A DNA stretch of 64,000 nucleotides from Thermodesulfobacteriota bacterium (GCA_965208155.1 OZ242322.1:1153732-1217731); one strand, 5' to 3'. Shown: positions 29,717 through 49,655, counted from the first letter of the stretch. Numbers and translations: made by a program. Notes: a model not told the origin generated them from the letters alone.

Positions 29717-29722
29717 GGCTCC

Positions 29723-33104: not shown

Positions 33105-33732
33105 TCGGATCCTCCTTTTTCATAAGCCCGAGAGCGCGGGGAAGCGCTATGTCCCCCAAAACCTTTACGTGGCGAAGCCCCCCGCAGTCCGAACCCGGCA
33201 GATAGCCGTAGGCAAGCACAAGCTGCGGCACCGCCCCGACCGCGAGGCACTCGAAAAGAACGGGGTCTATCCAGACCTCCGCTCCGCCGATGCCTGATAT
33301 CCGCGAGGCGGTTTCCCCGAGGCTCCCTCCCGAAAGTCCCCGCAAAACCATCACCGCTCCCCCGGCCGCGCTCTCCCGTGCCGCCTCCCGAAGAGAGGAG
33401 CGCGGCATCGAAAATGAGAAAAAGTAAAAAAGCCCGGGCGCATCGCCTGTGCCTGCGTTTTTCTCGGCTCCCGGGGGCTTTACCGAGAGCAGCTCCATTA
33501 CTTTTTCGGTTTCTCCGGGGGAGTTTATTTCAGAAAGTGTTTTCTCCGCCCCCGCCACATCAGGCGAGAGCAGCTCTCCCATGAGTTTCCTCGCGCGTGA
33601 GATATCCGCGCGGCCGGGTTCAGTCCTTATTTCCCCGAGCGAAACGGGATTCTCTGCGGGCACTGCCGGCGTTGCGGCTAGCGTGGCCGCGATCAGAGCA
33701 GGCAGCAGTCTTTTTTTCTCCATAGAACCCAT
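33052..33732 (-). CDS. trbC: F-type pilin-assembly protein TrbC (start chosen at the internal ATG with a GGAGAGG RBS)
   Basis: GLFYFFSFSMPRSSLREAARESAAGGAVMVLRGL matches the TrbC_Ftype core. The ORF-track start at 33882 would overlap traU by 190 nt. Confidence 0.7.
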   Translation of the reverse strand: MGSMEKKRLLPALIAATLAATPAVPAENPVSLGEIRTEPGRADISRARKLMGELLSPDVAGAEKTLSEINSPGETEKVMELLSVKPPGAEKNAGTGDAPGLFYFFSFSMPRSSLREAARESAAGGAVMVLRGLSGGSLGETASRISGIGGAEVWIDPVLFECLAVGAVPQLVLAYGYLPGSDCGGLRHVKVLGDIALPRALGLMKKEDPNAGIFIEKLSRGGFYDN

Positions 33733-34682
33733 ACCCAGTCCTCTCCCTCTCCGGGATACCACTTTCCCGCGGCCCAGCGGGCCGTTGTTCTTCCCACGGG
33801 GAAGGCCCCGGTGTTCTTGGGAAACGCGAGCTGAAGCTTGTACTGGTCCTTCACTATGACCCTGTGGGGCCGGGGCGCGCACAGGGAACCCTCGCCCGTG
33901 GTCCTGGGCGCAAGAAGCTCGTTATGCAGTTTCGCGAGCAGCTTTACGGCCGAGAGCGCGTAGACGGCCGGGATATCCCCCGTGGCTCCGTTGTTTCCCG
34001 TATGGGGATAGACGCTTCCCCACGACCCGGCGCACCAGAAAAGCTTGTTTATGCCGAACCCGCCCGCTGCGGCCACGGCGTCCGCGGCGCATGACGCCTG
34101 GGCCGGGGGATTCGCCACGAGGGCTATTTCGGGATGAAGCAGAAACGAAAGCTCGTCGTTGCTCCAGAGGGGATCGAAAGCCGTCAGGTAAGCGAGATCG
34201 AACCCTCCCCGGGTCATGCATCCGAAACTTGAGAAAAGATTGAGCACCGAGAACACCGGGTAGACAAAGTGGTGCGCGTGAAGAAAGGAAGTCCTGTCTC
34301 CCCGCTGCCCGCCTCCCTCTCCGTATGCCCCCGCCGTCGAGAAGGAGGGGAGGGGGAGCTTCCGGCCCCCGAGCGAGGGGAAGCATCCGGGGTGCCTTAC
34401 GACCTCTACAAGCGCCACGGGTTCCCAGAACGAGACCTTTATACCGACCCTGGGGACCGGTGAACCGCAGAAACAGAGAGGAAACCGGCTTACCGTGTCG
34501 GTTCCCTCACCGGGCGTTACGGCCACTCCCCCTATCTTTATCGGGAACATCGCCTTCCAGTCAACGTCTGTGATCGGGTTAAAAAACCTGCCGCCGCATT
34601 TGGGCGACGCCGCAGCCTCCCTTGCGGGGGCGGTGAACAGGGCTGCGAGCAGAAATGCGAGGAGTATCTTTTTTTGGGACAT
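33693..34682 (-). CDS. traU: F-type pilus assembly protein TraU
   Basis: GRFFNPITDVDWKAMFPIKIGG and conserved Cys pattern; 329 aa. Confidence 0.9.
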   Translation of the reverse strand: MSQKKILLAFLLAALFTAPAREAAASPKCGGRFFNPITDVDWKAMFPIKIGGVAVTPGEGTDTVSRFPLCFCGSPVPRVGIKVSFWEPVALVEVVRHPGCFPSLGGRKLPLPSFSTAGAYGEGGGQRGDRTSFLHAHHFVYPVFSVLNLFSSFGCMTRGGFDLAYLTAFDPLWSNDELSFLLHPEIALVANPPAQASCAADAVAAAGGFGINKLFWCAGSWGSVYPHTGNNGATGDIPAVYALSAVKLLAKLHNELLAPRTTGEGSLCAPRPHRVIVKDQYKLQLAFPKNTGAFPVGRTTARWAAGKWYPGEGEDWVWVLWRKKDCCLL

Positions 34683-35040
34683 TCTAGTAATAATGTATTA
34701 CAAAAAAGGGAATAAGGCAAGCGGAATCCGCCCGGGCGGCGAAGTTTCCGCCTGGCTTGCGGGATATGCATTGCGGGAAGTTCTCTTTCTTCGGAAAAAA
34801 AGGCGCGGGGCCCTTCCCGCGGCCCGCAAGCACAGAGGGGGTTTGGATTTTTCAGGCGAATTAACCGCGAGGATAACGGGCAATGTCTCCGGGAAAGCTT
34901 GCGCGTCCGCGAAGCAGGCGATGCTAAAGGAAAATGCTTGTGCTCCCGAGAGCAGATACATTAGATGTCTTGATAATTTTCCCTGTATGATATAATAAGT
35001 TGTATTAAAAATTACTTTTTATATATAATCATATATCAAA

Positions 35041-35355
35041 ATGAATTACACGACTGAACATATAGCCCGCGCGTTACGCAGCGCCCGCGAAGCCCGGGGT
35101 TTTAGCCAGCGCGAACTGGGCGCAAAGACGGGGGTGGCGCAGGGCTATATCTCAAGGATTGAGAACGGGGCTGTTGATCTCAGGGTTTCAAGCCTGGTTG
35201 CGCTTGCCCGGGCTCTTGGTCTGGAACTCACGCTTGTTCCGCGCGCGGTACTGCCCGCCGTGGAATCGATAACGCGCGCCCGCGCCGCCGCGCCGCCGCG
35301 CGGACAGGAGGGCTCGAGGCCGCTTTACGGTCTTGACGAGGAAGGTGATGACTGA
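35041..35355 (+). CDS. hipB: HipB-like HTH_XRE antitoxin
   Basis: RGFSQRELGAKTGVAQGYISRIENG. Overlaps hipA by 23 nt. AT-rich TATAAT-containing promoter upstream. Confidence 0.7.
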   Translation: MNYTTEHIARALRSAREARGFSQRELGAKTGVAQGYISRIENGAVDLRVSSLVALARALGLELTLVPRAVLPAVESITRARAAAPPRGQEGSRPLYGLDEEGDD

Positions 35356-36574
35356 CGTCCATGTTCTTGAAGTCCTGCTTCACGGCTCTTCCGTCGGTAC
35401 GCTGACGCGAGTCGGAGACGACCGCGCGTTATTCGCATTTAACCGCTCCTATATTGAGAATCCCGCAAGACCGGTGGTCAGTCTTGGTTTCAAGGACCGG
35501 TTCGGGGAACTGATTACGGCCTTCCCGCCCACGCAGACGCGGATTATGCCGTTTTTTTCAAACCTGCTTCCCGAAGGCCGTATGCGTGCCTATCTGGCGG
35601 GGCGCGCCGGAGTAAAATCCGTCCGGGAATTTTTTTTGCTCTGGGCGCTGGGCGAAGACTTGCCGGGAGCGCTTGCCGTCAGATCTTCAGGCGGTGAGCC
35701 GTGGCCGTCTGACTCTTCGGATGAAAGTTACGGCGGCGGGAGGAGCGAGAGCGCCCTTCGGTTCTCACTGGCGGGGATGCAGCTTAAGTTCTCAGCCGTT
35801 GAGGAGGCTCGCGGCGGTTTTACCCTTCCGGCAAAGGGGGTTGGCGGTTCATGGATAGTCAAGCTGCCTTCGCTTCATTTTGCGGGTGTTCCCGAGTGCG
35901 AGTTCTCGATGATGACGCTTGCCCGGCTGATCGGCATGGACGTGCCGGAGGTACGGCTTGTGGACATAGACGAGATCGGCAACCTTCCCCGGGATATCGG
36001 CGCTCTGAGCGGGCGGGCGCTCGCCGTAAAGCGCTTCGACCGGCGGGAGGACGGCGGCGCGGTTCACATTGAGGACTTCGCGCAGGTTTTCGGCGTCTAT
36101 CCCGAGGACAAGTACAGAAGGGCGAGAGCGCGCAACATCGCCGGGGTAATAGGGGCCGAGTGCGGGGAGGGGGACGCGGCCGAGTTTATCCGGCGCCTTA
36201 CGTTCAGCGTGCTTATCGGCAATGCCGACATGCATCTTAAGAACTGGTCGCTTGTTTATCCTCCTGGGCGAAACGCTGCTCTGGCTCCCGCCTATGACTT
36301 CGTTTCCACGGTTGCCTACATACCGTCAAGCGAAGCCGCTTTGAAGTTCAGCCGAACCAGGCGCTTTGAGCGTTACTCGGAGGATGAGCTTTCTCATCTT
36401 GCGGCCAAGGCCCTGCTTCCCGAAAAGCTTGTTCTGGACACGGCGCGCGAGACCGTGGAGCTGTTCCGTCAGCACTGGCGTGCCGAGAGAAGGAACCTCC
36501 TGTTGTCCGGCGACGCGATAAAAGCCATTGAGGATCATCTGAGGACTCTTCCCCTGGGAGCGCACCCTGGATGA
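35333..36574 (+). CDS. hipA: HipA family serine/threonine kinase toxin
   Basis: 413 aa; LSLAGMQLKFS, VKRFDRR, GNADMHLKNWSL. Confidence 0.85.
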   Translation: MTRKVMTDVHVLEVLLHGSSVGTLTRVGDDRALFAFNRSYIENPARPVVSLGFKDRFGELITAFPPTQTRIMPFFSNLLPEGRMRAYLAGRAGVKSVREFFLLWALGEDLPGALAVRSSGGEPWPSDSSDESYGGGRSESALRFSLAGMQLKFSAVEEARGGFTLPAKGVGGSWIVKLPSLHFAGVPECEFSMMTLARLIGMDVPEVRLVDIDEIGNLPRDIGALSGRALAVKRFDRREDGGAVHIEDFAQVFGVYPEDKYRRARARNIAGVIGAECGEGDAAEFIRRLTFSVLIGNADMHLKNWSLVYPPGRNAALAPAYDFVSTVAYIPSSEAALKFSRTRRFERYSEDELSHLAAKALLPEKLVLDTARETVELFRQHWRAERRNLLLSGDAIKAIEDHLRTLPLGAHPG

Positions 36575-36837
36575 CTGTTACTTCTTGTCCCTCCACTTGA
36601 TATAGCAGAACTTATTTTTAAGAGGGACAGAAGAGCAGTCGAGAGGAATTCGTCTTTACGGCACGGAATTTGCGCCGGGGGCAGGGGGGAACTTCAGCTT
36701 AACGAGTTCAAGTTTTTCCAAATCTTCAATAGACCATCAAATATCGTTAAGTAGTCTTTTGAAGAATTTGGCACTGTTGCAGGTTTTCTTTGGGTGGTAT
36801 GCGGGGTTTGCTCCCCACCCGCCTCTTCCCTGAACAA

Positions 36838-36915
36838 AGAAATTATGGCAGAGACATGTGAAGTTCAAAATGTCGTATCTGGGTTTCATTGCGGCGGGGG
36901 ATTATGCTCTTTCAG
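36838..36915. repeat. Degenerate copy (~80% identity) of the 3' terminal ~80 bp of the IS4-family IS found at 42826-42905
   Basis: ATTATGGCAGAGACATGTGAAGTTCAAAATGTCGTATCTGGGTTTCA... versus GTTATGGCAGGCAGTAGTGAAGTTCAAAATGGCGTATGCGGGTTTCA... Confidence 0.45.
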
Positions 36916-36920
36916 ACCGA

Positions 36921-37427
36921 TCAAGGGGGCAGCGACACTGCCAAGTCGCTGATCACGTCTGAGATGTATTCACGAAGCCACGGTTCTGGCTCGCGATGCG
37001 ACTTGAGAATGCTTGCTGATTCCCGATCGCCCCATGATTCTGCTGCCCCCACCGCGGCATCCCTGATTTCCACATTATCTGCAGTCAGTGCCCTGCGGAT
37101 GAGTTCAGCGCGCCATGAATATGTTCCAGGTTTCGTCTGACGTCCAAGGCAGCGCAGGACTGACGCGGCAAAGCCTGGATGTTCTTCGTCCAGAGAAAAA
37201 CTCTTAAGCCAGTCGAAAACTTGCCGGTTTTTCGAGGAACGCAGCGCCGTTGCGATAATCCGCTCCGCGGGATGACTCATTCCGCTTTCAAGCTGGCTGG
37301 CTTCAAATGCTGCGTGGAGCCTGTTTGAAAATTGTGTCTGTTCCGGTGACAAAATGTACCTGCCTCCCCGAGTTCCCTTACGGAACGATCTCCGGCTGTG
37401 TTTTGCCTGAAGAGTACAGGGCTTCAT
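36921..37427 (-). CDS. Hypothetical protein (119-168 aa, start ambiguous), overlapping the 3' end of abiEii
   Basis: Helical protein with no motif recognised. An internal ATG at 37280 would remove the overlap. Confidence 0.4.
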   Translation of the reverse strand: MKPCTLQAKHSRRSFRKGTRGGRYILSPEQTQFSNRLHAAFEASQLESGMSHPAERIIATALRSSKNRQVFDWLKSFSLDEEHPGFAASVLRCLGRQTKPGTYSWRAELIRRALTADNVEIRDAAVGAAESWGDRESASILKSHREPEPWLREYISDVISDLAVSLPP

Positions 37428-38301
37428 GAATCTCCGTTAACGTGCCCCTGATATGTGCGCTCAGGGAAGCGACGAATTCCGGTTTCCCCACTGTTTCCGA
37501 CAACGCCGTCTTATCAAGAAATCTCGACATTTCCTGCTGAAACAGCCGCTTTTCAAAATACTCGGGTATCGTATCGATTCTTTCTTCAAGAAGGGATTTA
37601 TAATGCTCGGTTATTCCGCGATCGGCAATTTTCAGTCTGATTAAATCAGACTTCACCACGGCGCCTTTCTGCCGCAGCCACAGCATGTCCCACAAGTCCC
37701 GGGCTTTTATGTTGCTCCGCGCGGGCACCGCGACCAGTTTGTCCGCCAGTATTTCGGAAAGAGAAGAGCACCTGAGGAACATTGTATTGTAGCCGTCGGG
37801 CAAATCCTGATAATTGGTCCTGATAATCTGGGGCGAGACTTCGTACGTGGGAAGGCATGTTATGTCTATGTTGATTCGCTGCTGAGGCAGATCTTTTCTG
37901 TCTCCTCCGGTCTTTATGATAACCTTCCAGGTGCTGACGCGGCTGTTTGCGAAACCGGAGTCTTCCTTCATCTCTTTTGGACTCCTTACCTCTGTTTCAA
38001 GTCCGTAACGGCCGTATATGTAATCCTTGAGTTCAGACCTGATCCTCTCAAATTCCTTCGCCCGAAAATTCACCCCCGCGTGAAAATCAATGTCTTCGCT
38101 GTATCGGTTTGATCCGTAGCACAGACGCAGGCACGTACCGCCCACAAAAGCCATGGGAGGGGGCATCAGGGCCTTGCGCTGCAGGACGTAAAAAATGTCG
38201 TAATGTATCAGTTCCTTTTCAATTACGGGGCGCAGTTGTGCGAGAGCCGGAGCGGCTCCGATAACCCTTCTGACTCTTTCAGTTAACGGGATTGCGGTCA
38301 C
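37378..38301 (-). CDS. AbiEii / AbiGii family nucleotidyltransferase toxin (DUF1814)
   Basis: FVGGTCLRLCYGSNRYSEDIDF NTase motif; 307 aa. Confidence 0.8.
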   Translation of the reverse strand: MTAIPLTERVRRVIGAAPALAQLRPVIEKELIHYDIFYVLQRKALMPPPMAFVGGTCLRLCYGSNRYSEDIDFHAGVNFRAKEFERIRSELKDYIYGRYGLETEVRSPKEMKEDSGFANSRVSTWKVIIKTGGDRKDLPQQRINIDITCLPTYEVSPQIIRTNYQDLPDGYNTMFLRCSSLSEILADKLVAVPARSNIKARDLWDMLWLRQKGAVVKSDLIRLKIADRGITEHYKSLLEERIDTIPEYFEKRLFQQEMSRFLDKTALSETVGKPEFVASLSAHIRGTLTEIHEALYSSGKTQPEIVP

Positions 38302-38944
38302 GGATCACCTCATTATAAGTTTCCATTGAAACCATGTGAATGTTGCGGCCCACTCGCCTCAGATCTTCAAAAGCCGTCTCGGGGTCGGCGATCCTGAGCG
38401 GTCTTGCGTTCTGCCAGCAGGTGTTGCGGATAATCTCGGATTCCCGCCGTGTGGTATGCGTAAACTCTATTGTTCCGTAGGGCGTGGTGTATTTCTGACT
38501 CCTTCCCGTCGTCATCACCGTGAGGTAGTTAAGCGTCATCTGGCTTATTGCGCCGTATTCCGAAAGGGCTGTCTCAAGACTTATGTAGGAGTATTTTCCC
38601 CCGCGAAGCGCAACCGCGACGGATTCAAGCCTGTAGGCGTTGGCGGAGTTCCGTGTATATAAATATACGCCCCGGCAGGCTCTTTCGATTACGCTGCCCG
38701 CCATGGCCCTTTTGAGCGTCTTTTTCAGGTTTTCTTCCGGTTCGCCCGGGAAAACATTCCTGATCATCCCGTTTGTGAAAGCGTGTATCCCATTTTCTGA
38801 CAGCAGATCCAGAAATTCGACTAGCGCGGACATTTTCATTGCTTTGTCTCCACAGAAAAGGTAACTAATTTTCCCCTTTCTGTAAACCTTTTTCGAAAAG
38901 CGGAAGGTCAATCGCGGATCAGCAACTTGCAAGGAATCCCGCAA
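38279..38944 (-). CDS. AbiEi family antitoxin / transcriptional regulator (probable start at the internal ATG 38836)
   Basis: Lies upstream of abiEii with a 23-nt overlap. C-terminal AbiEi_4-like region. Confidence 0.65.
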   Translation of the reverse strand: MRDSLQVADPRLTFRFSKKVYRKGKISYLFCGDKAMKMSALVEFLDLLSENGIHAFTNGMIRNVFPGEPEENLKKTLKRAMAGSVIERACRGVYLYTRNSANAYRLESVAVALRGGKYSYISLETALSEYGAISQMTLNYLTVMTTGRSQKYTTPYGTIEFTHTTRRESEIIRNTCWQNARPLRIADPETAFEDLRRVGRNIHMVSMETYNEVIRDRNPVN

Positions 38945-38963
38945 GCAGTTGATGGTCCAGGGG

Positions 38964-39054
38964 TCATATGCCGGAGGCTCTTGTTCCCTGTTCCGTCATT
39001 TGTTTTTTTCCGTGACTTCTTCTATCAGTGCCAGAAGATCATCTGAAACGCCGG
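38964..39054. repeat. Direct repeat copy A (~91 bp) covering the last ~19 codons plus the 3' flank of the 124-aa gene
   Basis: >90% identical to 44373-44464. Confidence 0.7.
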
Positions 39055-39370
39055 ATGGAAGCAGGTTTTTCCCGTGTTTTCGGCGCGCGGCGATCATAGC
39101 CGCGTAGTAAATCTCTCCTCCGGGATTTATGCTGACCGAGATTACCTTTTCAGGAGACCTGTACCACTCAAAGGAGATGGCTCCGTCAGGTTCCGCAGCT
39201 GTTTGCGGCATTTCGATATCTGGGGGGAGAAGTTCAAGAAAAGCTCTGGCGTCTCGCAGAACTTCTTCTGATACGGGTTCCGCTCTTGCGCCGTCCCAGT
39301 TCTCAGAAGAACATTCCTCAAAAACTTCCTGAAGTTCACGGAAAACTTCGTTGACAGTGATATCGGGCAT
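38996..39370 (-). CDS. Hypothetical acidic protein (124 aa)
   Basis: Complete ORF. Its 3' end is duplicated 5.4 kb away. Confidence 0.5.
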   Translation of the reverse strand: MPDITVNEVFRELQEVFEECSSENWDGARAEPVSEEVLRDARAFLELLPPDIEMPQTAAEPDGAISFEWYRSPEKVISVSINPGGEIYYAAMIAARRKHGKNLLPSGVSDDLLALIEEVTEKNK

Positions 39371-39707
39371 GCTCTTTGTGCTTCTCCGGGGTCATCCGTC
39401 GGGTCAACCGGGAAGAATTTTTTCCTTTCGACGGTTTTATTCATACATGATAACGTATTTTTGTTTTTCTGTCCGTTTCCTGGATTCTTCGTTGTATTAT
39501 TATCCATGGTTGTATGGCTCCTTGTTAAACAGGGTTGACCAGCTTTGCCACCAGACTGGAAAAAGCACCGGCCTTGGTCATCCTGTTAAAACATGAGAAT
39601 GAATTTGCAAGAAAAATCGAACAGGGATCTTATGGCCCGCAGATTAATGATGAAGACTGCCTGCTTGGTGCTTAATCCCGAAAAGTAGGTATTCTGGAAA
39701 CATATTC

Positions 39708-40589
39708 ATGAATGATTTATTGCTAAAAGGCCTTCAATTCGAAGTTGAAAACCTCGCCATTATCCGCAGAGGTAACTTCACCCAGAAACCGCTGACGGTT
39801 TTCTGTGGTCCGAACAACAGCGGTAAAACATTGGCCATGTACTCTCTTTACTATTTTTACAGCTTGTTGCCCGAGAGGGTCAGCAAGGGTAAAAACCTCG
39901 AGAGAGTCAGCCTTGAGAAATTTAACAAATACATGTCGTCCTCGCTTCCAGGGTTGTTCAATACCTCTTTAAAGGAACTGGACAAGGCGACATTCTGTCT
40001 TAAAGCCACGGAAAGTGACTGGCAAAGAATTGTCGGCGAAGCGAGGAGTTCGACTCGGATTTTCCTTGTGCCTGCGGAACGTAATGGTCTGCATCTGTTT
40101 TTTCGTGAACTTAGCACGCGGCGCACCGCCCTGCTGCACCATGCTTCCAGAGAAGACACAGATATCTCGGAATTGTTGCGCGACGTTATCCATTCGCACT
40201 ACGCTCTTCCAATAGCCGATTATATCAACTGGCTTAACGAGTTGCCCGAAAAACAGAAGTTGAAATCGAATGGTTTCCACGAGCATGCTTCGTTGCTTAA
40301 AAGGAAGCTGGTTGGTGGAACCTACAGGGTTGATGCTCGCAGCGGTGCTGTTCAGTTCAAGCCCTATCAGCCCAAGCGCGATGGAATAAAAACAAATTTC
40401 ATGGGCCTGCATATGACTTCCGGCATGGTTAAAAGCTTGTTCGGACTGTGGTTTTACCTGGAAAACCAGGCGTCAAAGGGCAGCGTACTTATGATCGATG
40501 AACCGGAGTTAAACATTCATCCCGCAGGCCAGCGCTACATAGCCCGGCTTCTGGCGAGGCTTGTGAATGCCGGGCTTAATATCGTCATC
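39708..40589 (+). pseudogene. AAA_15/AAA_21 ABC-type ATPase, N-terminal 294 codons, interrupted by an IS insertion
   Basis: FCGPNNSGKT Walker A; LMIDEPELNIHP Walker B. The reading frame runs into the IS left IR. It resumes exactly after the IS as ...STHSDYIVRELNSLIML (H-loop). Confidence 0.8.
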
Positions 40590-42948
40590 CTTTCAAGCCG
40601 ACACACTTGACTCCTTAATATTCGCTGGGTATATATACTGGCGTGCGGATAGGATTACGTCATTTTTCATCAGACAGCATAGAATGGTTAAAAGAAGCGG
40701 CGACAGATCCTGAACAGACTCGCTATGGGCTGGCACTGGGGCTTTGCGAGAAGGACAACTGGCGCAATGCCCGGGGGGAGTTGTGTCTTGCGTCCGCACG
40801 CAAGAGGCTTCCCACAATAGCGCAAGCCGTCGGAGTCAAGCTGCCCGCTCCTGCGTCCCTGCCCAAGGGCATGGTTCCTGGAGGCAAGGCTCCGCCGTTT
40901 GGAGCGGGCTATCCGGACAAGTATGTGGTTTGTTCTCTTGAGAGTCTGGGAGAAGTTTCTGTTGAGCCCGTGAAGGGGGCGGAGAAGAAGCTTTGGCGTG
41001 AGATGATACAGACTCATCATCCCGAGGGCTGGAGCAAGGTTCCCGGCAAACAGATATCCTACTGGATAACCACAGAGAATCATGGACGTGTGGGAGGCAT
41101 AGGTTTCTGTGCGGCAAGCTGGCACCAGGGTGCACGTGACAAATGGATAGGGTGGAGTGGGAGGGCGCGGGTGGAGAATCTTGGTCTGGTGATAAACAAC
41201 CATCGTTTTCTTCTGCTTCCGGGAGTCAGGGTAAAGAATCTGGCATCCCACGTGTTGTCGCTTGCCATATCGCAAGTGAGGGTGGAGTGGAAGGATATTC
41301 ACGGGACAGAACCCGTGGCGGCTTATACCTACATATCGAGTGATCATGAGGGGAGCAGTTACAGGGCCGCTGGGTGGGAGATGTGTGAGGAGAAGACTTC
41401 AGGGCGTCCTGCGAGCGGGGGGATTGTGGAGAGCAAGACGGTATGGATGAAACCCATATTGGGGGGATGGAAGAAGGTTTTGTGCGAAGAGCCCAGGCAC
41501 GTAATTGGACAGACACCAGAGCCTTATTACACAGAAGAGGCAGACTGGGCGGATGTGGAATACGGACGCAGTTCACATTCCGACGGACGGGTGAGGGAGC
41601 GTATAATATATATGGGGAGGAGGTGGGCCGATAATCCGGGGGAGCCGCTGCCAGTGGTTTTTCCTGGTGAAGCGGAGCAGAGGGGGATGTACAGGTTGCT
41701 GTCAAACAAGAGAGTTACGATGGAACATATACTTGAACCTCATACGGAAGCAACGGTGAGCCGGTGTCGTATGGAGAGAGTGGTTCTGGCTGTTCAGGAC
41801 ACCACTACGGTTAATTACAGTGGGCATGAGAAGACAGAGGGGCTTGTGAGCATAGGGGGGAAGGGCAAAGGGTTGTTTGTTCATGTGGGGTTGGCGATAA
41901 CGGAGGGGAAACGTCCTTTGGGGGTTTACGATCTTAACGCCACGGTGAGGGCAGTTGGGAAGGGTAAGAAGAACAAGAAGCAGGAGAGCAAGAGGTGGGT
42001 AGAAGGGCTTTTCAAGGCTCGGGAACTTAAAGAAGCGTGCGAAGGGACGCGTGTGGTTACGGTATGTGACAGGGAGGGGGACATGTGGGAACTTCTTCGA
42101 GAGGGGGTAGAGGGAGGGGACGGTCTTTTGGTGCGTTCAAAGAAGGGGCATAAGCGGCGTGTTGTGGTAGGGGAGGAGACAGAGAATCTGTGGAAGCACA
42201 TACAGAGCAGGCCGGTGCTTGCCAAAAGGGAGATAGAGGTGAAAGCATGCGGAGGGAAGAGGAAACGGGAGAGTCGGAGTGTGATGCTAGAGATACGTGC
42301 CGCGAGAGTGAAGCTTGTGGCTCCTTTAAGTGAGGGGGCTTCTGTGGAGCCGCTTGATATGCTTGCGGTAAGTGCTTCTGAGCCTGATCCGCCGAGCGGC
42401 AAGGAGCGTCTTCACTGGGTTTTGCTAACCACAGAGGGGGAAGAAACAGCGGAGGATGCGGTGCGTGCGATCAAGTGGTATGAGGCTCGGTGGAGTATAG
42501 AAGAGTATTTTAAAGCTCTTAAGACGGGAACGGGAATAAAGAAAAGGAGATTTGATTGCGCAGATGATCTGCGCAAGTGTCTTGGATTTGACGTTGTTAC
42601 GGCGTACAGGGTGTTTGATCTTGAGAGGATGGCGAGGGAGAAGCCGGACACTCCGGCCCGAGAGGTAGCGGGGGAGGAAGAGATAGATGCCATGTACAGT
42701 CTGCTCGAGTATGAAAGAATTATAAAGAAGAGGCCTGATGAAGCGCCCGACATACGCACTTACGTGATTGATCTTGCGAGATACGCTGGATTCAGGCCCA
42801 GCAAACGACAGCCGCTTCCGGGTACGAAGAAGTTATGGCAGGCAGTAGTGAAGTTCAAAATGGCGTATGCGGGTTTCAGGGCCGCGCGACAAATTCAAAC
42901 AAGGGGGCCCTGAAAAATAATGATGAGTCAAGTGTGTCGGCTTGAAAG
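40590..42948. mobile_element. IS4-family insertion sequence (2359 bp) with perfect 24-bp IRs and a 9-bp target-site duplication
   Basis: IR CTTTCAAGCCGACACACTTGACTC at 40590-40613, and its reverse complement at 42925-42948. TSD ATCGTCATC at 40581-40589 and 42949-42957. Confidence 0.9.
40643..42913 (+). CDS. IS4-family DDE transposase with N-terminal DUF4338-like domain (756 aa)
   Basis: C-terminal YEARWSIEEYFKALK (Y-2-R-3-E-6-K). N-terminal ISYWI..VGGIGFCAASWHQGARDKWIGWS region. Confidence 0.85.
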   Translation: MRIGLRHFSSDSIEWLKEAATDPEQTRYGLALGLCEKDNWRNARGELCLASARKRLPTIAQAVGVKLPAPASLPKGMVPGGKAPPFGAGYPDKYVVCSLESLGEVSVEPVKGAEKKLWREMIQTHHPEGWSKVPGKQISYWITTENHGRVGGIGFCAASWHQGARDKWIGWSGRARVENLGLVINNHRFLLLPGVRVKNLASHVLSLAISQVRVEWKDIHGTEPVAAYTYISSDHEGSSYRAAGWEMCEEKTSGRPASGGIVESKTVWMKPILGGWKKVLCEEPRHVIGQTPEPYYTEEADWADVEYGRSSHSDGRVRERIIYMGRRWADNPGEPLPVVFPGEAEQRGMYRLLSNKRVTMEHILEPHTEATVSRCRMERVVLAVQDTTTVNYSGHEKTEGLVSIGGKGKGLFVHVGLAITEGKRPLGVYDLNATVRAVGKGKKNKKQESKRWVEGLFKARELKEACEGTRVVTVCDREGDMWELLREGVEGGDGLLVRSKKGHKRRVVVGEETENLWKHIQSRPVLAKREIEVKACGGKRKRESRSVMLEIRAARVKLVAPLSEGASVEPLDMLAVSASEPDPPSGKERLHWVLLTTEGEETAEDAVRAIKWYEARWSIEEYFKALKTGTGIKKRRFDCADDLRKCLGFDVVTAYRVFDLERMAREKPDTPAREVAGEEEIDAMYSLLEYERIIKKRPDEAPDIRTYVIDLARYAGFRPSKRQPLPGTKKLWQAVVKFKMAYAGFRAARQIQTRGP

Positions 42949-43293
42949 ATCGTCATCAGTACGCACAGCGATTACATAGTGCGGGAACTCAATTCACTGA
43001 TCATGCTCAGCGGAGACAAAAACCAGAAGCTGCTCAGCAGGCATGGATATGACAAGAGTGAAGTTCTCAGCATTGAACAAGTGGGCGCTTATCTTTACGA
43101 TGAACAAACTATCACCCCTTTTGAAATAACTCCGGAAGATGGAATCTACGCGACGACTTTCGATGAGGTGATTGGCGATATAAATATGACTAACGACGAT
43201 ATTTATTACAGCCTGCAGGAACAAAGCGATGTCCGAAGAGGCGATACGAAGGAAATTTCTGCTTTTTCAATTCGGGAAAATTCCGTACAATAA
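42949..43293 (+). pseudogene. C-terminal 115 codons of the IS-interrupted AAA_15 ATPase
   Basis: In frame from the TSD: IVISTHSDYIVRELNSLIMLSGDK... Confidence 0.75.
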
Positions 43294-43308
43294 ACCGTAA
43301 GGATTTGG

Positions 43309-44073
43309 TTATACGGCAAGTTCTTCTCGTACCTTGTCTCGATTAGACCATAGGACTGCACGCAGGTCGTAGTTATGAAAAGCATCCAAAACGCTACCTG
43401 ATACACTTTCTTCGGAATCGTTTAGGATTGCATAGGCGCGTGATTCCTGAGGTCTTGCTTCCTTGGTATCGATCCACGAAAAAACCAAGGCTTTTGCGGT
43501 ATCTCTACTAGGGCGATTGATCGCCCGCAGAATACGTTCCGGCTGAGTCTTTGACTTCGGTATAATAAAATCAAAAAGGTGATCGTAACCGCTTCTGCCT
43601 GTAAATTTCACTTTGGGCGAGTAGCGGATTTCAGACATGTCCAGCCAGTTGATAACATCCTCGTAAAAAAAGCTTTCCACTATCGGAGATGCCATATAGA
43701 AAAGGTCGTTAACCGAAAGCATGGCCTGTAGAAGATTATGTTTCTGTAGAGCAAAATTATCTGTAGATGCGTTGACTTCAAGCGCTTTTAGATTTCTCCT
43801 AGCCCCGAAACCGTCAAGCGTCATTTTGAGCAGGGCTTGGCGCTTCGGGGTGTCTATTTTGCAACCCGACAGTTCAAGGTCTTCCAGAATATAGCCGTCA
43901 TCTGAGAGAACTAATTCCCCATTTCGACGTTTTACATAAATCTGCAGATAATCATTGTGACGATCCAAAAATGGCGTGGTTATTTCAACATAGTTGTCGG
44001 TTTCGCGAAGCGTCGTTTTGTTCCGTAGCCATTTCCAGTATTCGTCCAGCAGTGTTTGAACGCTCGGCATCAT
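43309..44073 (-). CDS. DUF1828/DUF1829-like protein (254 aa), convergent with the ATPase
   Basis: N-terminal LLDEYWKWL...[18 protein letters not shown] pattern typical of DUF1828. The assignment is tentative. Confidence 0.45.
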
Positions 44074-44372
44074 GAAAACAACCCTTTTTAAATTATAGTC
44101 GGTTTAACGATGTTACAAAACTCCATAAACTCCTTAAGTACTTGGTGAAGGTCGTTTAAATCTTCGTGCTTTTTTTCAAATCAGCCTCGGAAGGCGAGTC
44201 CGAAGAGGCTGATTTGAAACCGTTTCCTTGCCCTGATGCCACCTTCCTTCCGCCCTCCTTCTCTTGACCGTCTTTTCTCCTCTTAGTGCTACAACGCCAC
44301 CTTCGCCTTGAACTCTGGTGAATACGCCTTTGAGGCATTTGCGTAGTGGAGTATAGCTATACTGGGCAGGGA

Positions 44373-44464
44373 TCATATGCCGGAAGTCCCTTGTTCCCTG
44401 CTCCGTCATTTGTTTTTTTCCGTGACTTCCTCTATCAGTGCCAGAAGATCATTTGAAACGCCGG
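44373..44464. repeat. Direct repeat copy B (~92 bp): orphan duplicate of the 3' end of the 124-aa gene
   Basis: Encodes the same C-terminal ...DLLALIEEVTEKNK* but has no upstream gene body. Confidence 0.7.
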
Positions 44465-44601
44465 GTCTTTCGGGAAAATGTGAACCGCTCCCTCTGCCTG
44501 GAGCAATTAAAAGAGATTTTTTCTCTTTTAAATTGATTTTTAAGGGTTTTTATGTATATTAGCAGTATGTAATGAGTTGATATCGTATAAGGAGATGTCA
44601 A

Positions 44602-45924
44602 ATGATTATAAGTTTTTCAATAGAGAACTGGATGTCTTTCCGTGACCCCGTTTCTTTCTCAATGGTTGCAAGCCGTGAAAGACAGCATGGAAACCGGATC
44701 CCCAAGGTCGGAAAATACCAGATGAGGATTTTGCCTGTAGCGGCGATCTACGGCGCCAACGCGTCGGGCAAAACGAATTTCTTCAAAGCTCTGGGTTTTG
44801 TCAGGAATCTGGTTCTTGAAGGAACAGGTACTGACAAGCCGATTCCCGTGGAGCCCTATCGACTCGCCAACGGGTATACGGAAAGACCTTCCCGATTCAG
44901 TATAGAGCTGCTGATTGACGAAACAATCTACGAATTCAGCTTTGCCGCGACCAGAAGGGCCATTGTCGAGGAGAAGCTCGTAGAGATTACCAGCACAAGC
45001 GAGAAAACCCTGTATAACCGCCAGGCGGGCGAACCGAATCTTCACAGTTCACTAGGCGGGAAACCGTTTCTCCTTTTTGCTTTTCAGGGCACGGGGGACA
45101 ATCAGCTGTTCCTTACGAACTCCGTATCCCAGAAGGTTGACGACTTCAGGCCGGTTTATGACTGGTTCAGAAATTCCTTATCGTTGATTGCTCCGGATTC
45201 TATATATCAAAGATTCGGATACCTGCTTGATGAAACCCATCCGATGCGCAGCGCGGTTAACAGAACAATCCCGCAGCTTGATACAGGCATCTCTTATCTG
45301 AGCTTGGAAGAAGTGCCTTTTGAAAGCATTCCTTTCGAAGAAGAATTTAAAAACGATCTGTACGGAAAAATCGAAGAAGGCGGATACAGGGACGCTCGCC
45401 ACGGCACTGAACGTTTTGTCCTTGCAAAAAGGGGTGGTGAGGTGGTGGCGAAAAAGCTGGTCGCGTTTCACCCCAGAGCTGACGGAACAGATGCTAAGTT
45501 TGAATTCCATCAGGAATCAGAAGGTTCCCGGAGGGTAATTGATCTGCTGCCCGCCTTTCTGGGCGAGCCGCCTTTCGGCTCAAACAGTGTATATGTTATT
45601 GACGAGATGGACCGAAGCTTGCACCCGTTGCTGACGAGGAAGCTGATTGAAGTCTATCTCGACGGTGGCAGTGCGCAGAGCCGCGCGCAGCTGGTATTCA
45701 CAACGCACGATGTTTCCCTCATGGATCAAGACCTTTTCCGCCGTGACGAAATGTGGGTTACCGAGAAAAACTCCGAGGGGAATTCAGATATTTTTTCCTT
45801 CAGCGACTACAAGGGTATCCGCTATGACAAGGATATCCGTAAAAGCTATCTTCAGGGCCGTTTAGGTGGTGTTCCCCGGTTCTCTTTAGGCGGCACCGAG
45901 ATTAACCGCGAGGACAACAAGTAA
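44602..45924 (+). CDS. AAA_21-type ABC ATPase (440 aa), stand-alone
   Basis: IYGANASGKTN Walker A; YVIDEMDRSLHP Walker B; C-terminal FTTHD H-loop. GGAG RBS. Confidence 0.8.
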   Translation: MIISFSIENWMSFRDPVSFSMVASRERQHGNRIPKVGKYQMRILPVAAIYGANASGKTNFFKALGFVRNLVLEGTGTDKPIPVEPYRLANGYTERPSRFSIELLIDETIYEFSFAATRRAIVEEKLVEITSTSEKTLYNRQAGEPNLHSSLGGKPFLLFAFQGTGDNQLFLTNSVSQKVDDFRPVYDWFRNSLSLIAPDSIYQRFGYLLDETHPMRSAVNRTIPQLDTGISYLSLEEVPFESIPFEEEFKNDLYGKIEEGGYRDARHGTERFVLAKRGGEVVAKKLVAFHPRADGTDAKFEFHQESEGSRRVIDLLPAFLGEPPFGSNSVYVIDEMDRSLHPLLTRKLIEVYLDGGSAQSRAQLVFTTHDVSLMDQDLFRRDEMWVTEKNSEGNSDIFSFSDYKGIRYDKDIRKSYLQGRLGGVPRFSLGGTEINREDNK

Positions 45925-45999
45925 TGCCTCCGGGAAAACGGAGAAGATTCATCTAAATCACGCAAGGCTACGTGCCCGACATTGCATCCTCGGATTTTG

Positions 46000-46857
46000 T
46001 CAAGACATGCTTATCGTTTTTTTAGCTTCTACTGTCCAAGTGCGGATACTAGACAAAATTTCTTCAGGCAAACCGATGCAGTTTTCTACCAAGCGGCATC
46101 GGTCCAAAACTATTCCGGCATCAGTGTTAGTATTTTTCCAATCGGAATTGTCAAGTGCTTCCGAGATGCAAAATACTCTTGTCGGGTTGACAAGAAATGG
46201 TTCAAGCATCCATTTACGGATAAATCCCTCTGGTTGTAACTGGGAAGTAGATTTCTTCCAATTTGTTCCTGTTTTACATTGACCGAACAAAAGCAGTTGG
46301 CCCGGCCGCCGGTCTGCAAACGGAATCCATGCTACAACGTCAAGCAAGCCGTCTTTTTTCCTGACGGGTCTTTCGTCTCTGTTTCGAAACCCTGAACCTT
46401 CACCTAGCATATTGCAAAGTTCGTTAATTTTATTTTTGAAGTTTCCTTGTCTGGCTGTTCCAAAAACAAAACATTGCGCTTTATCCTGACCGAGATAAGT
46501 CTTCAATGCATGAGCAGATAGATATTCCAGCAACTTCGTACCGTCAATCTCCGCATGCTTTCTCTGCTTTTTCATATTGAGGCGGGTGCTTAGCAGCAAG
46601 TACAAGTAAACAACCGATTGTGTTTTTTCGGGTTCTGGGACATGGCCCCGCAACGCTGTCCCCTGTTGGTTGAGAGCAAACGGGTAAACGGAAGCGCATG
46701 CTCTTTCTCTACGATCGATTTCATTCATCACTTCATTAATCCGCTCGGCGTTTTCATCCTCATCATCGTTACAACCCTCATTGCTCTCGTTTTCGCCAAT
46801 ACGTCCCAAGTATGCAACGATCTCCCTAGCGGAGGTGTTTCCTTTAATCCAGCACAA
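46000..46857 (-). CDS. Hypothetical protein (285 aa), possible PD-(D/E)xK-like nuclease; last gene of the MTase / ParB-like operon
   Basis: GLLDVVAW...PGQLLLFGQCKTG resembles a D...(E/Q)xK core. Acidic N-terminus. The assignment is tentative. Confidence 0.45.
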   Translation of the reverse strand: MCWIKGNTSAREIVAYLGRIGENESNEGCNDDEDENAERINEVMNEIDRRERACASVYPFALNQQGTALRGHVPEPEKTQSVVYLYLLLSTRLNMKKQRKHAEIDGTKLLEYLSAHALKTYLGQDKAQCFVFGTARQGNFKNKINELCNMLGEGSGFRNRDERPVRKKDGLLDVVAWIPFADRRPGQLLLFGQCKTGTNWKKSTSQLQPEGFIRKWMLEPFLVNPTRVFCISEALDNSDWKNTNTDAGIVLDRCRLVENCIGLPEEILSSIRTWTVEAKKTISMS

Positions 46858-46929
46858 GAGCTCTGCGAAGTCTGCCAGTTCCAGAATGTCCGCATCTGGA
46901 GACGGTAGGTGGGGAAGCTTGAACAGGAT

Positions 46930-48051
46930 TTATTCCTCCGCAGCACGAGCCCTATTTTTTCTGGAGATTTTCCCCATGCGATTTCTTTTGCGAAGCATTT
47001 CTGAGTACACATCCTCAGCCATTTCGGCAACTGTTTCCGCTATGTGTAGAAGGTCTTCCGACCCATCATAGCCCGTCGTCATGTAGGCACGCGTATTTTG
47101 GAGTCCGCGTTTTGACTTTAGGAGTGCTTCTTCGAAGACATCGGTTGGAAGACGGCTTAATTCAAAAGCCACTGCTAATTCTTTGTCGTCTCGAAGTGCA
47201 GCAAGTGCCTCTCTACTTTTCAAGACTTCATTAAGCTGTCTAAGATGGGGATTCTGAGTCTCTACAACGGGCGGCTTGTTCTCTTTTTTATCTCCGTACA
47301 GCCAGATGCACAATTCGCCAAGTCTGCTTATGGCCTTTTTGGGTACTGGTGTTTTGGCTTCGGCATCCACCGACTTCAAGGATAGAAATTTACTGACTCC
47401 GTCGTAGTCGAGACCCGTGTAGAGGTGAGAGAAGGCAAATCTCTTACGAAACCGGTTGTCCCGATCGTAGACTCCCTGCCTTTCTGCTTGTTCTATGACC
47501 ATCAGCCCACGGTAAAGACGTTGCACTGTTTTGTGGCGGTCACCAATCTGTTCCGCAATGTCTTCAAGGGATATTTGGTATTTTCTGTGGATATTGGCAA
47601 TGTACTCGGCCTTTGCGTAACTACTCCACTTGGCGGGTCCGTTTACATGTTTAAAGCCTATATAGCGCCAGAGTTCTTCACGAGTGGAAATTTTTACCGG
47701 CAGATTCTCAAGCTTCTTGAGTTTTGCTCTCTTGAGGGTTGGAACATCCCAACCTTTTTCTGCAGCGAGGTTAGGATCAAGGAGTGCTTTTACGGCCGCA
47801 AGCCGCCGGTTTCCTTCAATGACTATTTTTTTGCTGCCTTCTTCAGCAACGATTAAGGGTTCATGTTCGAAATACCCGCTGGCAGCGATGGATTGTACCA
47901 ATTCCTTGATATCCATTGCGTCCCAAAGGATCGAGATAATATCATCTTCCTTTGCTGTTCCGGTGATTCCGTATTCCGCAAGCCGGGGATTCTCCCTGTC
48001 AAAGTGCAGCGAAGAAGTGGGCAGCCAGTTAGTATCTTCTGTTTTCGTCAT
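46930..48051 (-). CDS. ParB/Sulfiredoxin-domain protein (ParB-like nuclease/NTPase N-terminal domain), 373 aa
   Basis: KIVIEGNRRLAAVKAL is the ParB-box GxxR motif. Long helical C-terminus. Confidence 0.7.
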   Translation of the reverse strand: MTKTEDTNWLPTSSLHFDRENPRLAEYGITGTAKEDDIISILWDAMDIKELVQSIAASGYFEHEPLIVAEEGSKKIVIEGNRRLAAVKALLDPNLAAEKGWDVPTLKRAKLKKLENLPVKISTREELWRYIGFKHVNGPAKWSSYAKAEYIANIHRKYQISLEDIAEQIGDRHKTVQRLYRGLMVIEQAERQGVYDRDNRFRKRFAFSHLYTGLDYDGVSKFLSLKSVDAEAKTPVPKKAISRLGELCIWLYGDKKENKPPVVETQNPHLRQLNEVLKSREALAALRDDKELAVAFELSRLPTDVFEEALLKSKRGLQNTRAYMTTGYDGSEDLLHIAETVAEMAEDVYSEMLRKRNRMGKISRKNRARAAEE

Positions 48052-48064
48052 CAGTTTTTCTCCG

Positions 48065-48958
48065 CTAAGCGATTTTCAGCAAAGTGTTTTCGTTTTGCCC
48101 CATGCTATATGACTGTGGAATATGGACGTTATCGGGCGCGATTATCAGTTCCCGCGCGAAATGCTTTACCTGTAAAGTATAACGGAGCGGCAGCAGGGCC
48201 ATCTTGCATTTACCGTAAAGCCCACGAACCAGATCGCTGTCGTCGTAGGACATGATCCAAGGCAATTTTTTCTGAGTGTGCATGTACTTCGCCAATACGT
48301 GATGGTCTTCCGGTTCATACGCGTTGAGGTAAAGTCTCCGGCCGTTGCTTACGTAGGGCGGATCCAAGTATACGAACACGTGTCCCCTTCTGTGTCCCTT
48401 TGGCAGGTGGAGCCTGAGGAAATCAACGGCATCTTCGTTAAACACTTCTATGCGCTCGCGGTGTTTGGCGAGCGCGAGCAAGCGTTTCGCAAGACCCTCG
48501 CGATTAAAACGAGCATCCATTTTCCATCTGCCTTCTTGCCCGAAGCCTCCGATCGGCCCGGCGCCCATCAATATCCCCGACCTGTTGGTGCGATTCATGT
48601 AGAAGGCCGCAAAACCCAGATCAAAGAGATTGTGCCGCCCGGGGCTGGCGCAGATTTCTCTCTGGTTTCTCCACTCCTTGATCGTTAACGGCACTTTGAT
48701 TACGCGTTGCGCGAAACGTTCGGGCTGCTCAAGGGCTGCGCGCCAGAACGCGTAAATGCAGGGGTCCGCGTCGTTTAATCGAATCTTTGAAACAACCCCG
48801 GCACCCAGCAGCGCCAGCGCCGCGCCCGCTCCTCCTGCGTAAGGTTCGAAATAGACGCATCCCCTCAAGTCGTTTAGATCAATAACGTCGGCCAGAAACC
48901 CGGAAAGCGCCGTTTTCCCGCCGGGATATCGCAACGGACTGAGATGTTTTTCAGACAT
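48065..48958 (-). CDS. Dam-family N6-adenine DNA methyltransferase (D12 class); start at the internal ATG (MSEKHLSPL...)
   Basis: LRYPGGK (motif I) and DPPYV (motif IV). The ORF-track start at 49051 would overlap traW. Confidence 0.85.
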   Translation of the reverse strand: MSEKHLSPLRYPGGKTALSGFLADVIDLNDLRGCVYFEPYAGGAGAALALLGAGVVSKIRLNDADPCIYAFWRAALEQPERFAQRVIKVPLTIKEWRNQREICASPGRHNLFDLGFAAFYMNRTNRSGILMGAGPIGGFGQEGRWKMDARFNREGLAKRLLALAKHRERIEVFNEDAVDFLRLHLPKGHRRGHVFVYLDPPYVSNGRRLYLNAYEPEDHHVLAKYMHTQKKLPWIMSYDDSDLVRGLYGKCKMALLPLRYTLQVKHFARELIIAPDNVHIPQSYSMGQNENTLLKIA

Positions 48959-49037
48959 ATCCTTCCTTTTCCCTAGTACTGAAGTATGCACTCTGACACT
49001 TGCCTGGTCAATTTTAAGGAACAAAATCGCCTCTATA

Positions 49038-49655
49038 CTATTGCAGGACAATCTCCCGCAGCCTGAGCTTTTTTCCCTCCTGAGTCACAAGCGACGGCAC
49101 TTTTTCAATCTTGAGCCTCCTGAGCATAAAAGGACTTGCCTTGTATACTGGTTGACCCGCAAGCAAGGAAGCTCTTCGGATATCACCGTCTGTGAGCAGC
49201 AGAATCGGGTTTTCACTTCTTTTATCTGCCTCCTCAAGCGCCCTTTTCACCTGGTCCTCCCTCAGCACCAGAATGCTTTTCGAAAGCGCCATGTGGTCAA
49301 GCGGATTCACGGCACCAGCGGGAAAAATCATCGCTCCGGTATGGTCGCGCAGCGGATTCCGCACATTCACCGAAGGGTCGACGTAACGTACCCGCTCAGA
49401 AGTGGCTGATGGGACGTCAAGAGAAACAAAAAAGTGCTGCGCCCAGGATTCCCGGACTTTTTTCTCCATGCTCCCCCGAAGCGCCGCCATTGAGATATCC
49501 CCCGCCTTTCTCCGCACGTAGGAAAGCATGTCCTCTTCCTCTATCTCGTAGAGGCGCCCGTGAACCCCGAGATCTTTCCCCGAGGCCGGCACCGAGTGGG
49601 ACTGGACAAAAAAGACCGAGGCTAGAACAATGGAAATCCACGCCCGACTATCCAT
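49038..49655 (-). CDS. traW: F-type pilus assembly protein TraW
   Basis: Signal peptide, KDLGVHGRLYEIEEEDM N-terminal motif; ~205 aa. Lies between trbI/peptidase and (in F) traU. Confidence 0.8.
   Translation of the reverse strand: MDSRAWISIVLASVFFVQSHSVPASGKDLGVHGRLYEIEEEDMLSYVRRKAGDISMAALRGSMEKKVRESWAQHFFVSLDVPSATSERVRYVDPSVNVRNPLRDHTGAMIFPAGAVNPLDHMALSKSILVLREDQVKRALEEADKRSENPILLLTDGDIRRASLLAGQPVYKASPFMLRRLKIEKVPSLVTQEGKKLRLREIVLQ

Follow-up and report, generated by a model that had tools for sequence, protein, structure and literature searches.

An insertion sequence of Tn5/IS50 type splits a PD-T4-4_A-like ATPase gene in an eroding defence hotspot of a Thermodesulfobacteriota conjugative element

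Introduction

PD-T4-4 systems, which combine an ABC ATPase with a PD-(D/E)xK nuclease and are related to WonAB, were first found in a defence locus of an integrative and conjugative element (PMC9519451, PMC12137116, bioRxiv 10.1101/2025.07.10.664194). Phage protection is documented only for the E. coli PD-T4-4 (PMC9519451) and for selected homologues assayed in a panel study (bioRxiv 10.1101/2025.07.10.664194). Here, we analysed a 64,000-nucleotide (64-kb) stretch of a metagenome-assembled Thermodesulfobacteriota chromosome (GCA_965208155.1, OZ242322.1:1153732-1217731; hereafter the window, in which all positions are counted from the first letter), where a gene for an ATPase of this kind is split by a complete insertion sequence (IS) of the IS4 family and lies next to a convergent DUF1828/1829 gene. 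The ATPase of the window fits PD-T4-4_A and, in its relatives, the next gene fits PD-T4-4_B, as described for PD-T4-4 (Vassallo et al. 2022, PMC9519451) and WonAB (PMC12137116); moreover, like the original system, it resides in a defence hotspot of a conjugative element. The differences are equally clear: the window is without PD-T4-4_B (hereafter B) and its PD-T4-4_A gene (hereafter A) is split by the IS, so that no system is present. Furthermore, the E. coli system that was tested is only distantly related to this clade, and the ATPase is ~55 residues shorter than the PADLOC profile (405 versus 460).

Three further described entities are relevant to this locus. PDC-M24 is a PADLOC candidate system composed of a DUF6978 and a DUF1828/1829 protein, for which we found no paper testing the pair. 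The window gene fits PDC-M24B over its full length, but the A gene of that module is down to 31 codons with a stop, and the two are not embedded in a type I restriction-modification (R-M) operon. The second entity is Tn5/IS50. The C-terminal 457 residues of the window transposase align with the Tn5 transposase end to end, with matching DDE and YREK residues, and the IS shares a 9-bp target-site duplication (TSD), terminal inverted repeats (IRs) starting with CT and a single transposase open reading frame (ORF) filling the element. Unlike Tn5, it carries an N-terminal extension of ~298 residues with a GNAT fold (DruA/DUF4338), and it is ~0.8-0.9 kb longer than IS50. The third is Druantia, whose DruA the transposase resembles in that its residues 111-225 fit the Pfam DruA model and adopt a GNAT-like fold. 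However, the domain is part of an IS-encoded transposase and has neither a Druantia gene context nor a PADLOC DruA match.

Results

A complete IS4-family element separates the two halves of the ATPase gene

The features of the interrupted gene are as follows.

39708-40589, plus strand: 5′ part of the ATPase gene (PD-T4-4_A-like, ABC/AAA_15), codons 1-294
40581-40589: left copy of the TSD, ATCGTCATC, spanning ATPase codons I292-V293-I294
40590-42948, plus strand: complete IS4-family (Tn5/IS50-like) IS, 2,359 bp
40590-40613, plus strand: left terminal IR, perfect over 24 bp and 91% identical over 33 bp
42925-42948, minus strand: right terminal IR
42949-42957: right copy of the TSD, ATCGTCATC
42958-43293, plus strand: 3′ part of the ATPase gene, codons 295-405 plus stop, starting with the conserved STHS block (H297)

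The IS is bounded by IRs with the sequence CTTTCAAGCCGACACACTTGACTC, identical at 24/24 bp and at 30 of 33 positions once the arms are extended. Even with up to three mismatches allowed, this sequence occurs in the 64-kb window only at the two IS ends, where none would be expected by chance. Both ends abut an exact copy of ATCGTCATC, a 9/9 match that by our own arithmetic would arise by chance with a probability of ~4e-6, and the empty site would read GGGCTTAATATCGTCATCAGTACGCACAGC. The original prediction of an IS4-family insertion with 24-bp IRs and a 9-bp TSD at these positions is thus confirmed, and the sequence indicates that the ATPase gene was hit by transposition between codons 294 and 295. 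In Tn5, the 9-bp duplication is produced by staggered cuts in the target; by analogy, the same mechanism would account for the duplication in the window.

The element also occurs in further copies. The 2.44-Mb (2,441,076-bp) source contig encodes at least 10 transposase variants that are 96-99% identical to the window copy. The same 24-bp IR was also found in one related GTDB representative genome, the 2.28-Mb chromosome of a 'Thermodesulfobacteriota bacterium' metagenome-assembled genome (OZ242379.1), which carries five full 2,350-bp copies, 86% identical to the window copy, along with one partial copy. Each of the five full copies is flanked by its own, different, perfect 9-bp TSD, and because all five have one, as does the window copy, a duplication of this fixed length is a property of the element. 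Collectively, the sequence data indicate an active, multi-copy, Tn5/IS50-like IS4-family element with a 9-bp TSD as its signature.

An abundance of near-identical copies (at least 10 in this genome) is also the situation in which assemblers err, and it might be argued that the apparent insertion is an artefact in which a multi-copy IS was mis-joined in a metagenome-assembled chromosome. The source contig, as noted, extends over 2.44 Mb, and the flanks of the IS share the 9-bp duplication and rebuild a conserved 405-aa gene in frame, which a chimeric join would not do. Since joining the flanks at the exact target duplication yields a single conserved gene, the window copy is not a chimera of two IS copies, and of all explanations considered here we give an assembly artefact the least credence.

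Removing the IS restores a conserved ATPase

Deleting 40590-42957, i.e. the IS with one TSD copy, joins 39708-40589 to 42958-43293 into one 1,218-nt ORF. As predicted, this ORF is single and free of internal stops, although it comprises 406 codons (405 aa plus stop) rather than the ~409 that had been proposed. A homology search with the restored protein, suggested as a check, retrieved 1,702 homologues, typically 385-400 aa long and covering 93-97% of it, and more than 100 intact homologues align with it end to end. The sequence at the restored junction (LNIVI/STHSDYIVRE) is a block conserved in 20/20 aligned homologues. Pfam assigns the restored protein to AAA_15/AAA_21, in agreement with the AAA_15 call made for the split gene, and PADLOC matches it to PD-T4-4_A (PDLC04033) with an E-value of 1.9e-91, as well as to PDC-M47A. 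The assignment to PD-T4-4_A-type ABC/AAA_15 ATPases applies to the restored ORF only, the actual gene being interrupted.

As it stands, the truncated product runs into the IS and ends at 40610, after 300 aa. According to the alignment, both the Walker A motif (GPNNSGKT, residues 34-41) and the Walker B motif (LMIDEPE, residues ~261-267) are located in the 5′ part. Because the insertion parts this Walker A/B half from the STHS (H-loop-like) block and the C-terminal domain, the split gene is predicted to be dead.

The insertion had been proposed to be recent, and its features bear this out: with IRs and TSD free of mismatches, an uninterrupted transposase ORF and no stop or frameshift in either target half, the insertion appears young. 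The restored ATPase deviates at three positions that are at least 95% conserved, and 19 of 115 homologues have three or more such deviations. With no excess of deviations, the gene was therefore not a long-dead pseudogene when it was hit. At its 3′ end, the last ~15-19 codons (from ~43235-43246) constitute a non-homologous read-through tail; these codons are foreign because the native stop was lost.

The conserved partner of the ATPase is a PD-T4-4_B-type nuclease, of which a stub remains

43229-43245, plus strand: stub of the PD-T4-4_B nuclease gene, an ATG followed by ~2-5 codons, overlapping the 3′ end of the ATPase gene (from DNA alignment to L001, L002 and L003)

To place the ATPase among its relatives, we compared 28 ATPase loci from genomes and metagenomes, 26 of which are informative in having at least 600 nt downstream of the ATPase gene (homologous loci compared in this work, whether of the ATPase or of the DUF1828/1829 gene, are labelled L001, L002, L003, L004, L005, L046, L047 and L048; L002 is GCA_022821525.1). 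All 26 informative loci carry a co-directional, usually overlapping gene of PD-T4-4_B type directly 3′ of the ATPase gene. The encoded proteins are ~178 aa long and match PD-T4-4_B modestly (E 1e-9 to 1e-11), and they keep the D...(E/D)xK...Q signature. In the window, DNA homology to the relatives ends at 43234-43245, just past the ATG of B (43229), where the native stop of the ATPase gene is expected. Searches with tblastn and hidden Markov models (HMMs) detected no B-like sequence anywhere in the 64-kb window, including as a displaced gene, and no PD-(D/E)xK nuclease gene of PD-T4-4_B type adjoins the ATPase.

Damage to B recurs elsewhere in this family. In L002 (7166-7834), which belongs to a related conjugative element, a deletion ends B after ~72 codons and joins it in frame to sequence for the ~158 C-terminal residues of the AbiLi-like ATPase, while L046 carries an orphan ATPase, with B gone and the last ATPase codons lost. 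B was thus lost or destroyed independently and repeatedly, in the window, in L002 and in L046.

The DUF1828/1829 gene is an orphan of a different module

43309-44073, minus strand: DUF1828/DUF1829 gene (PDC-M24B by PADLOC, both domains by Pfam), intact, 254 aa
44165-44073, minus strand: remnant of a DUF6978 gene (PDC-M24A), last 31 codons, with an in-frame TAA at 44088-44090

Pfam recognizes both domains in the protein encoded at 43309-44073, in keeping with its original designation, and PADLOC matches it to PDC-M24B almost end to end (E 2e-103, residues 2-253 against positions 1-254 of the 255-position profile). We examined 12 DUF1828/1829 loci from four lineages, including the closest relatives (81-85% identity). 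In 12/12, an intact DUF6978 gene overlaps the start of the DUF1828/1829 gene by 4 nt, and the pair is mostly located between hsdS and hsdR of a type I R-M operon. A PADLOC check showed that DUF6978 matches PDC-M24A. In the window, the corresponding upstream position is occupied by the 31-codon remnant only, which is 68% identical to the C-terminus of the L004 DUF6978 protein (tblastn, E 6e-10), with DNA homology to L004 ending at 44165. No hsd remnants were found around the DUF1828/1829 gene. From these comparisons, the gene is best described as the orphan of a two-gene module different from that of the ATPase.

In the same comparison for relaxed selection as made for the ATPase, the protein itself has seven deviations versus a maximum of five in the others, and it is also the most divergent sequence of the set. 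It has no sequence match in the PDB. Its AlphaFold model is poor (predicted local distance difference test, pLDDT, 64), and Foldseek returned weak matches to Card1, Kpn2I and MspJI (E at least 3e-3, template modelling (TM) score at most 0.31), which hint at a restriction-endonuclease-like fold.

According to the original prediction, the DUF1828/1829 gene was the likely former partner of the ATPase, which would make the two a two-gene defence system just inactivated by the IS. The genes are indeed adjacent, only 16 nt apart, both match HMMs of defence catalogues and both lie in a defence island. They are, however, convergent and therefore not an operon. A search for the same pair elsewhere found a DUF1828/1829 gene near none of the 28 ATPase loci, and PADLOC places the two genes in PD-T4-4 and PDC-M24, respectively. 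Against the proposed partnership stand, in addition, the ubiquity of B beside the ATPase and of DUF6978 beside DUF1828/1829 in the loci described above, the stubs of both true partners on either side of the ATPase-DUF1828/1829 junction and the syntenic locus L048, in which A is followed by B without a DUF1828/1829 gene. We consequently regard such a two-gene system as highly improbable.

Synteny points to replacement of the nuclease gene by a cargo mosaic

The window is a chromosomally integrated F-type conjugative element, as seen from the genes for TraG, H, F, N, TrbC and TraU at 26714-34682 and those for an S26 peptidase, TraC, TrbI, TraK, TraE and the coupling protein at 49622-59672. Between traU and the S26-peptidase/traC block lies a cargo hotspot (35333-49051) with HipA, AbiEi/AbiEii, the split ATPase, the DUF1828/1829 protein, an AbiLi-like ATPase and a PD-Lambda-5-like pair of a ParB-like protein and a methyltransferase.

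In the best syntenic relative, L048, the gene order is hipB-hipA, a small gene, A, B, a 209-aa gene and the S26 peptidase gene. The window matches L048 at 34986-36557, 39015-40589, 42946-43238 and 49064-50293. Compared with L048, the window has gained a HEAT-repeat gene and AbiE, it has gained the IS, and the 0.67-kb B has been swapped for a 5.8-kb mosaic (43239-49063); it is these synteny segments that identify 43239-49063 as the replacement of B. The mosaic begins with a 0.9-kb fragment that carries the DUF1828/1829 gene and the last 31 codons of DUF6978.

We therefore propose the following scenario as very probable. An IS of Tn5/IS50 type transposed into codon 294/295 of the ATPase gene in the cargo hotspot of the conjugative element, and the gene for the ~178-aa PD-(D/E)xK nuclease, which overlaps the ATPase 3′ end, was replaced by the 5.8-kb mosaic of other cargo. 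This replacement contains the DUF1828/1829 (PDC-M24B) gene together with the final codons of its own partner, DUF6978. Two unrelated two-gene modules are thus each down to one orphan, the IS being a second hit on the first module.

Either of these hits may have come first. Conceivably, the IS first struck a working A-B system and B was replaced only afterwards, its loss being either neutral or a removal of an unregulated nuclease. Related systems that pair an ATPase with a nuclease rely on the former to keep the latter in check, and losing A could accordingly favour the loss of B; the restored ATPase is without excess changes at conserved sites, and B has independently been lost or truncated in L002 and L046. 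On the other hand, the IS, with its perfect IRs, TSD and intact transposase, looks like the youngest event, and the junction left by the replacement of B is diverged, mosaic and marked by further scars (a nonsense codon and an orphan repeat) that suggest older events. Neither set of arguments is decisive, and we consider the IS-first order unlikely, though far more plausible than either a former DUF1828/1829 partnership or an artefact. Either order leaves a PD-T4-4-like system doubly inactivated. The proposal that the ATPase was intact beforehand thus holds in that the ORF was uninterrupted before the insertion, but not for the two-gene system, which has now been hit twice, with either hit possibly the first.

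The transposase combines a Tn5-like core with a GNAT-fold domain

40643-42913, plus strand: transposase gene, 756 aa, GTG start, intact; the sole ORF, filling the IS
40928-41536, plus strand: GNAT-fold domain of the transposase (Pfam DruA/DUF4338), residues ~96-298, preceded by a helical N-terminal region (residues 1-95)
41537-42910, plus strand: Tn5-like DNA-binding, DDE catalytic and dimerization region of the transposase, residues 299-756

The transposase matches the Pfam models DruA (PF14236, formerly DUF4338), Tnp_DNA_bind and Dimer_Tnp_Tn5, as well as the NCBIfam model transpos_IS4_3 (298 bits versus a cut-off of 160). With phmmer, its residues 299-755 align with residues 13-477 of the Tn5 transposase (1mm8; E 3e-38, ~28% identity), and the DDE and YREK residues are in register with those of Tn5 in this alignment. 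Thus, the protein possesses a Tn5-type DDE core with the YREK signature, with catalytic D386, D476 and E620, whose counterparts in Tn5 are D97, D188 and E326. The AlphaFold model (pLDDT 87, predicted TM score 0.81) resembles the Tn5 transposase in Foldseek comparisons (target-normalized TM score 0.80-0.82).

That the transposase carries an N-terminal DUF4338-like domain was correctly foreseen: the Pfam DruA model matches residues 111-225 (E 1.7e-22, 80 bits versus a cut-off of 27), with 119 of the 297 profile positions matched. In the model, the DruA region resembles RimI, SpeG and Gcn5 (Foldseek, target-normalized TM score 0.6-0.7, E 5e-4 to 5e-3), and the region is accordingly predicted to have a GNAT acetyltransferase fold. 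An assignment of DUF4338 to the GNAT fold was published previously (PMC10853773) and agrees with the fold seen in our model. Beyond that assignment, we found no description of a DUF4338-transposase fusion in the searchable literature. The domain keeps the motif R-V-x-(G/N)-L-A-S (R196 and L200-A201 in the window copy), which resembles the acetyl-CoA-binding motif A. Within the underlying R-x-x-G-x-A pattern, the variable position is G in 28 of 48 members and N in the window copy and 14 others. The conservation of the GNAT domain equals that of the catalytic core.

At least 730 full-length relatives with the same architecture are present in public data, named, if at all, only 'IS4 family transposase', and the N-terminal module is matched by 4,217 representative clusters. 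Among 72,556 PLSDB plasmids, the full-length (long) form was not found, only short Tn5-like relatives with at most 32% identity. No PADLOC model, DruA or other, matches the transposase, and the domain has no DruB-E- or DruH-type genes in an operon with it, the resemblance to Druantia consisting in the Pfam domain match. The transposase domain hence shares ancestry with DruA and is neither a DruA orthologue nor a component of Druantia.

The GNAT-bearing Tn5-like IS4 elements form a large group that, as far as we could find, is uncharacterized. Given its conservation and its acetyl-CoA-type motif, their GNAT domain might be catalytically competent and play a real role in transposition, a reading that we consider rather unlikely. 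If so, it could for example acetylate a host nucleoid protein, a factor bound at the target or the transposase itself, and the enigmatic Druantia DruA would be evolutionarily linked to the machinery of mobile elements.

Other cargo and neighbouring genes

38996-39370, minus strand: small conserved gene, 124 aa, divergent from and upstream of the ATPase gene; no Pfam match
44366-44466, minus strand: orphan second copy, ~93% identical, covering the 3′ end of the 124-aa gene and its 3′ flank

The small gene upstream of the ATPase is homologous, at both the DNA and protein levels, to 136-150-aa genes upstream of the ATPase in L002 (5391-5837), L003, L048 (5241-5651) and L046 (1884-2336). The 124-150-aa products show a weak PADLOC match to the C-terminal part of PDC-M32A. 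L046 has lost B but retains this gene beside its ATPase, which makes a role as a regulator or as a third component conceivable. The end of this gene recurs as a direct repeat of ~100 nt (~93% identity; 38960-39056 versus 44366-44466), the second copy, without the gene body, being located just upstream of the AbiLi-like ATPase gene. This orphan repeat probably either marks where a paralogue was deleted or is a recombination site used in the exchange of cargo. Exactly at the breakpoint that ends the DUF6978 remnant, two perfect 15-bp arms of an inverted repeat enclose a 16-nt loop (TTTCAAATCAGCCTC...GAGGCTGATTTGAAA; 44174-44219).

The remaining cargo contains several recognizable modules. The AbiLi-like AAA_21 ATPase (44602-45924, plus strand; PADLOC AbiLi, E 3e-82) has no AbiLii-type partner downstream; the same ATPase recurs beside genes of PD-T4-4 type in L001 and L003. 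In the window, its next neighbour is a convergent 285-aa ORF (46000-46857, minus strand) with no Pfam, NCBIfam or PADLOC match. At 46930-49051 (minus strand) lies an apparently intact PD-Lambda-5-like pair, composed of the ParB-like PD-Lambda-5_A (E 1e-23) and of PD-Lambda-5_B, a D12-class adenine methyltransferase (E 4e-100). On the other side of the split ATPase gene, 37378-38944 (minus strand) encodes the antitoxin AbiEi (NCBIfam TAA_AbiEi, 201 bits) and the nucleotidyltransferase toxin AbiEii. The two appear to constitute an intact type IV toxin-antitoxin/abortive-infection module, which L048 lacks.

The edge of the cargo is marked by a HipA-like kinase gene (34986-36574, plus strand; HipA_C and Couple_hipA), syntenic with the HTH-HipA pair of L048. 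A defence system of HipA with a DUF3037/DUF1829 protein (DS-6/HipAD) has been described (PMC13092281). We see no link of this kind in the window, in which 7 kb separate the DUF1828/1829 gene from the kinase gene and the relatives of the former have DUF6978 as their partner.

Within the transfer region and its surroundings, two paralogous AAA_14 + DUF4143 ATPase genes (21423-22595, plus strand, and 25483-26598, minus strand) flank a 622-aa ORF (22785-24653) with a weak MULE-transposase match, maybe another mobile element beside traG. The TraN homologue (31911-33104, minus strand) is 397 aa long versus 576 aa in L002 and L003, and its Pfam match is confined to the C-terminal part of the model; it could represent either a short variant or the truncation of a gene in the transfer operon. 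A scan for promoters and terminators yielded background levels only.

Discussion

Taken together, our analyses very probably describe the erosion of a defence island, in which an IS split a PD-T4-4_A-type ATPase gene, the gene for its nuclease partner B was replaced by a cargo mosaic and the neighbouring DUF1828/1829 gene originates from an unrelated PDC-M24 module. Much of this can be observed directly in the DNA, namely the anatomy of the IS, the restored ORF, the identities of both partners with their two stubs, and the synteny with L048, while the succession of the events and the past antiphage role of the ATPase belong to the reconstruction.

Several points weigh against this interpretation or narrow it. 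The sequence by itself fits either order of B replacement and IS insertion, and the restored ATPase shows no sign of the long neutral decay that could have preceded the insertion. An allele with an empty site was not found among the homologues, the nearest of which is only 85% identical, and because of this distance, comparison does not date the insertion. The ATPase is connected to the validated E. coli PD-T4-4 through the PADLOC HMMs, from which the former antiphage activity of the clade is inferred. Finally, the DUF1828/1829 gene is still a full-length ORF and may keep some function on its own.

As regards the element, the window IS documents the 9-bp TSD and the IRs for a widespread group of GNAT-bearing Tn5-like transposases. 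Its novelty is limited to that of a new member of a known IS family, with the GNAT-Tn5 transposase group as a modest side lead.

At the locus as a whole, a resident IS and the replacement of cargo have eroded a defence-island hotspot in an ordinary way. As such, it provides a clean, datable example of cargo turnover in the hotspot of a conjugative element, to which replacement, deletion and IS hits all contribute. In this ATPase family, the nuclease partner emerges from the comparison as a component that has been lost repeatedly. With two unrelated two-gene modules each whittled down to one gene and the survivors now neighbours, the window also carries a caution: adjacency within a defence island does not make genes partners.

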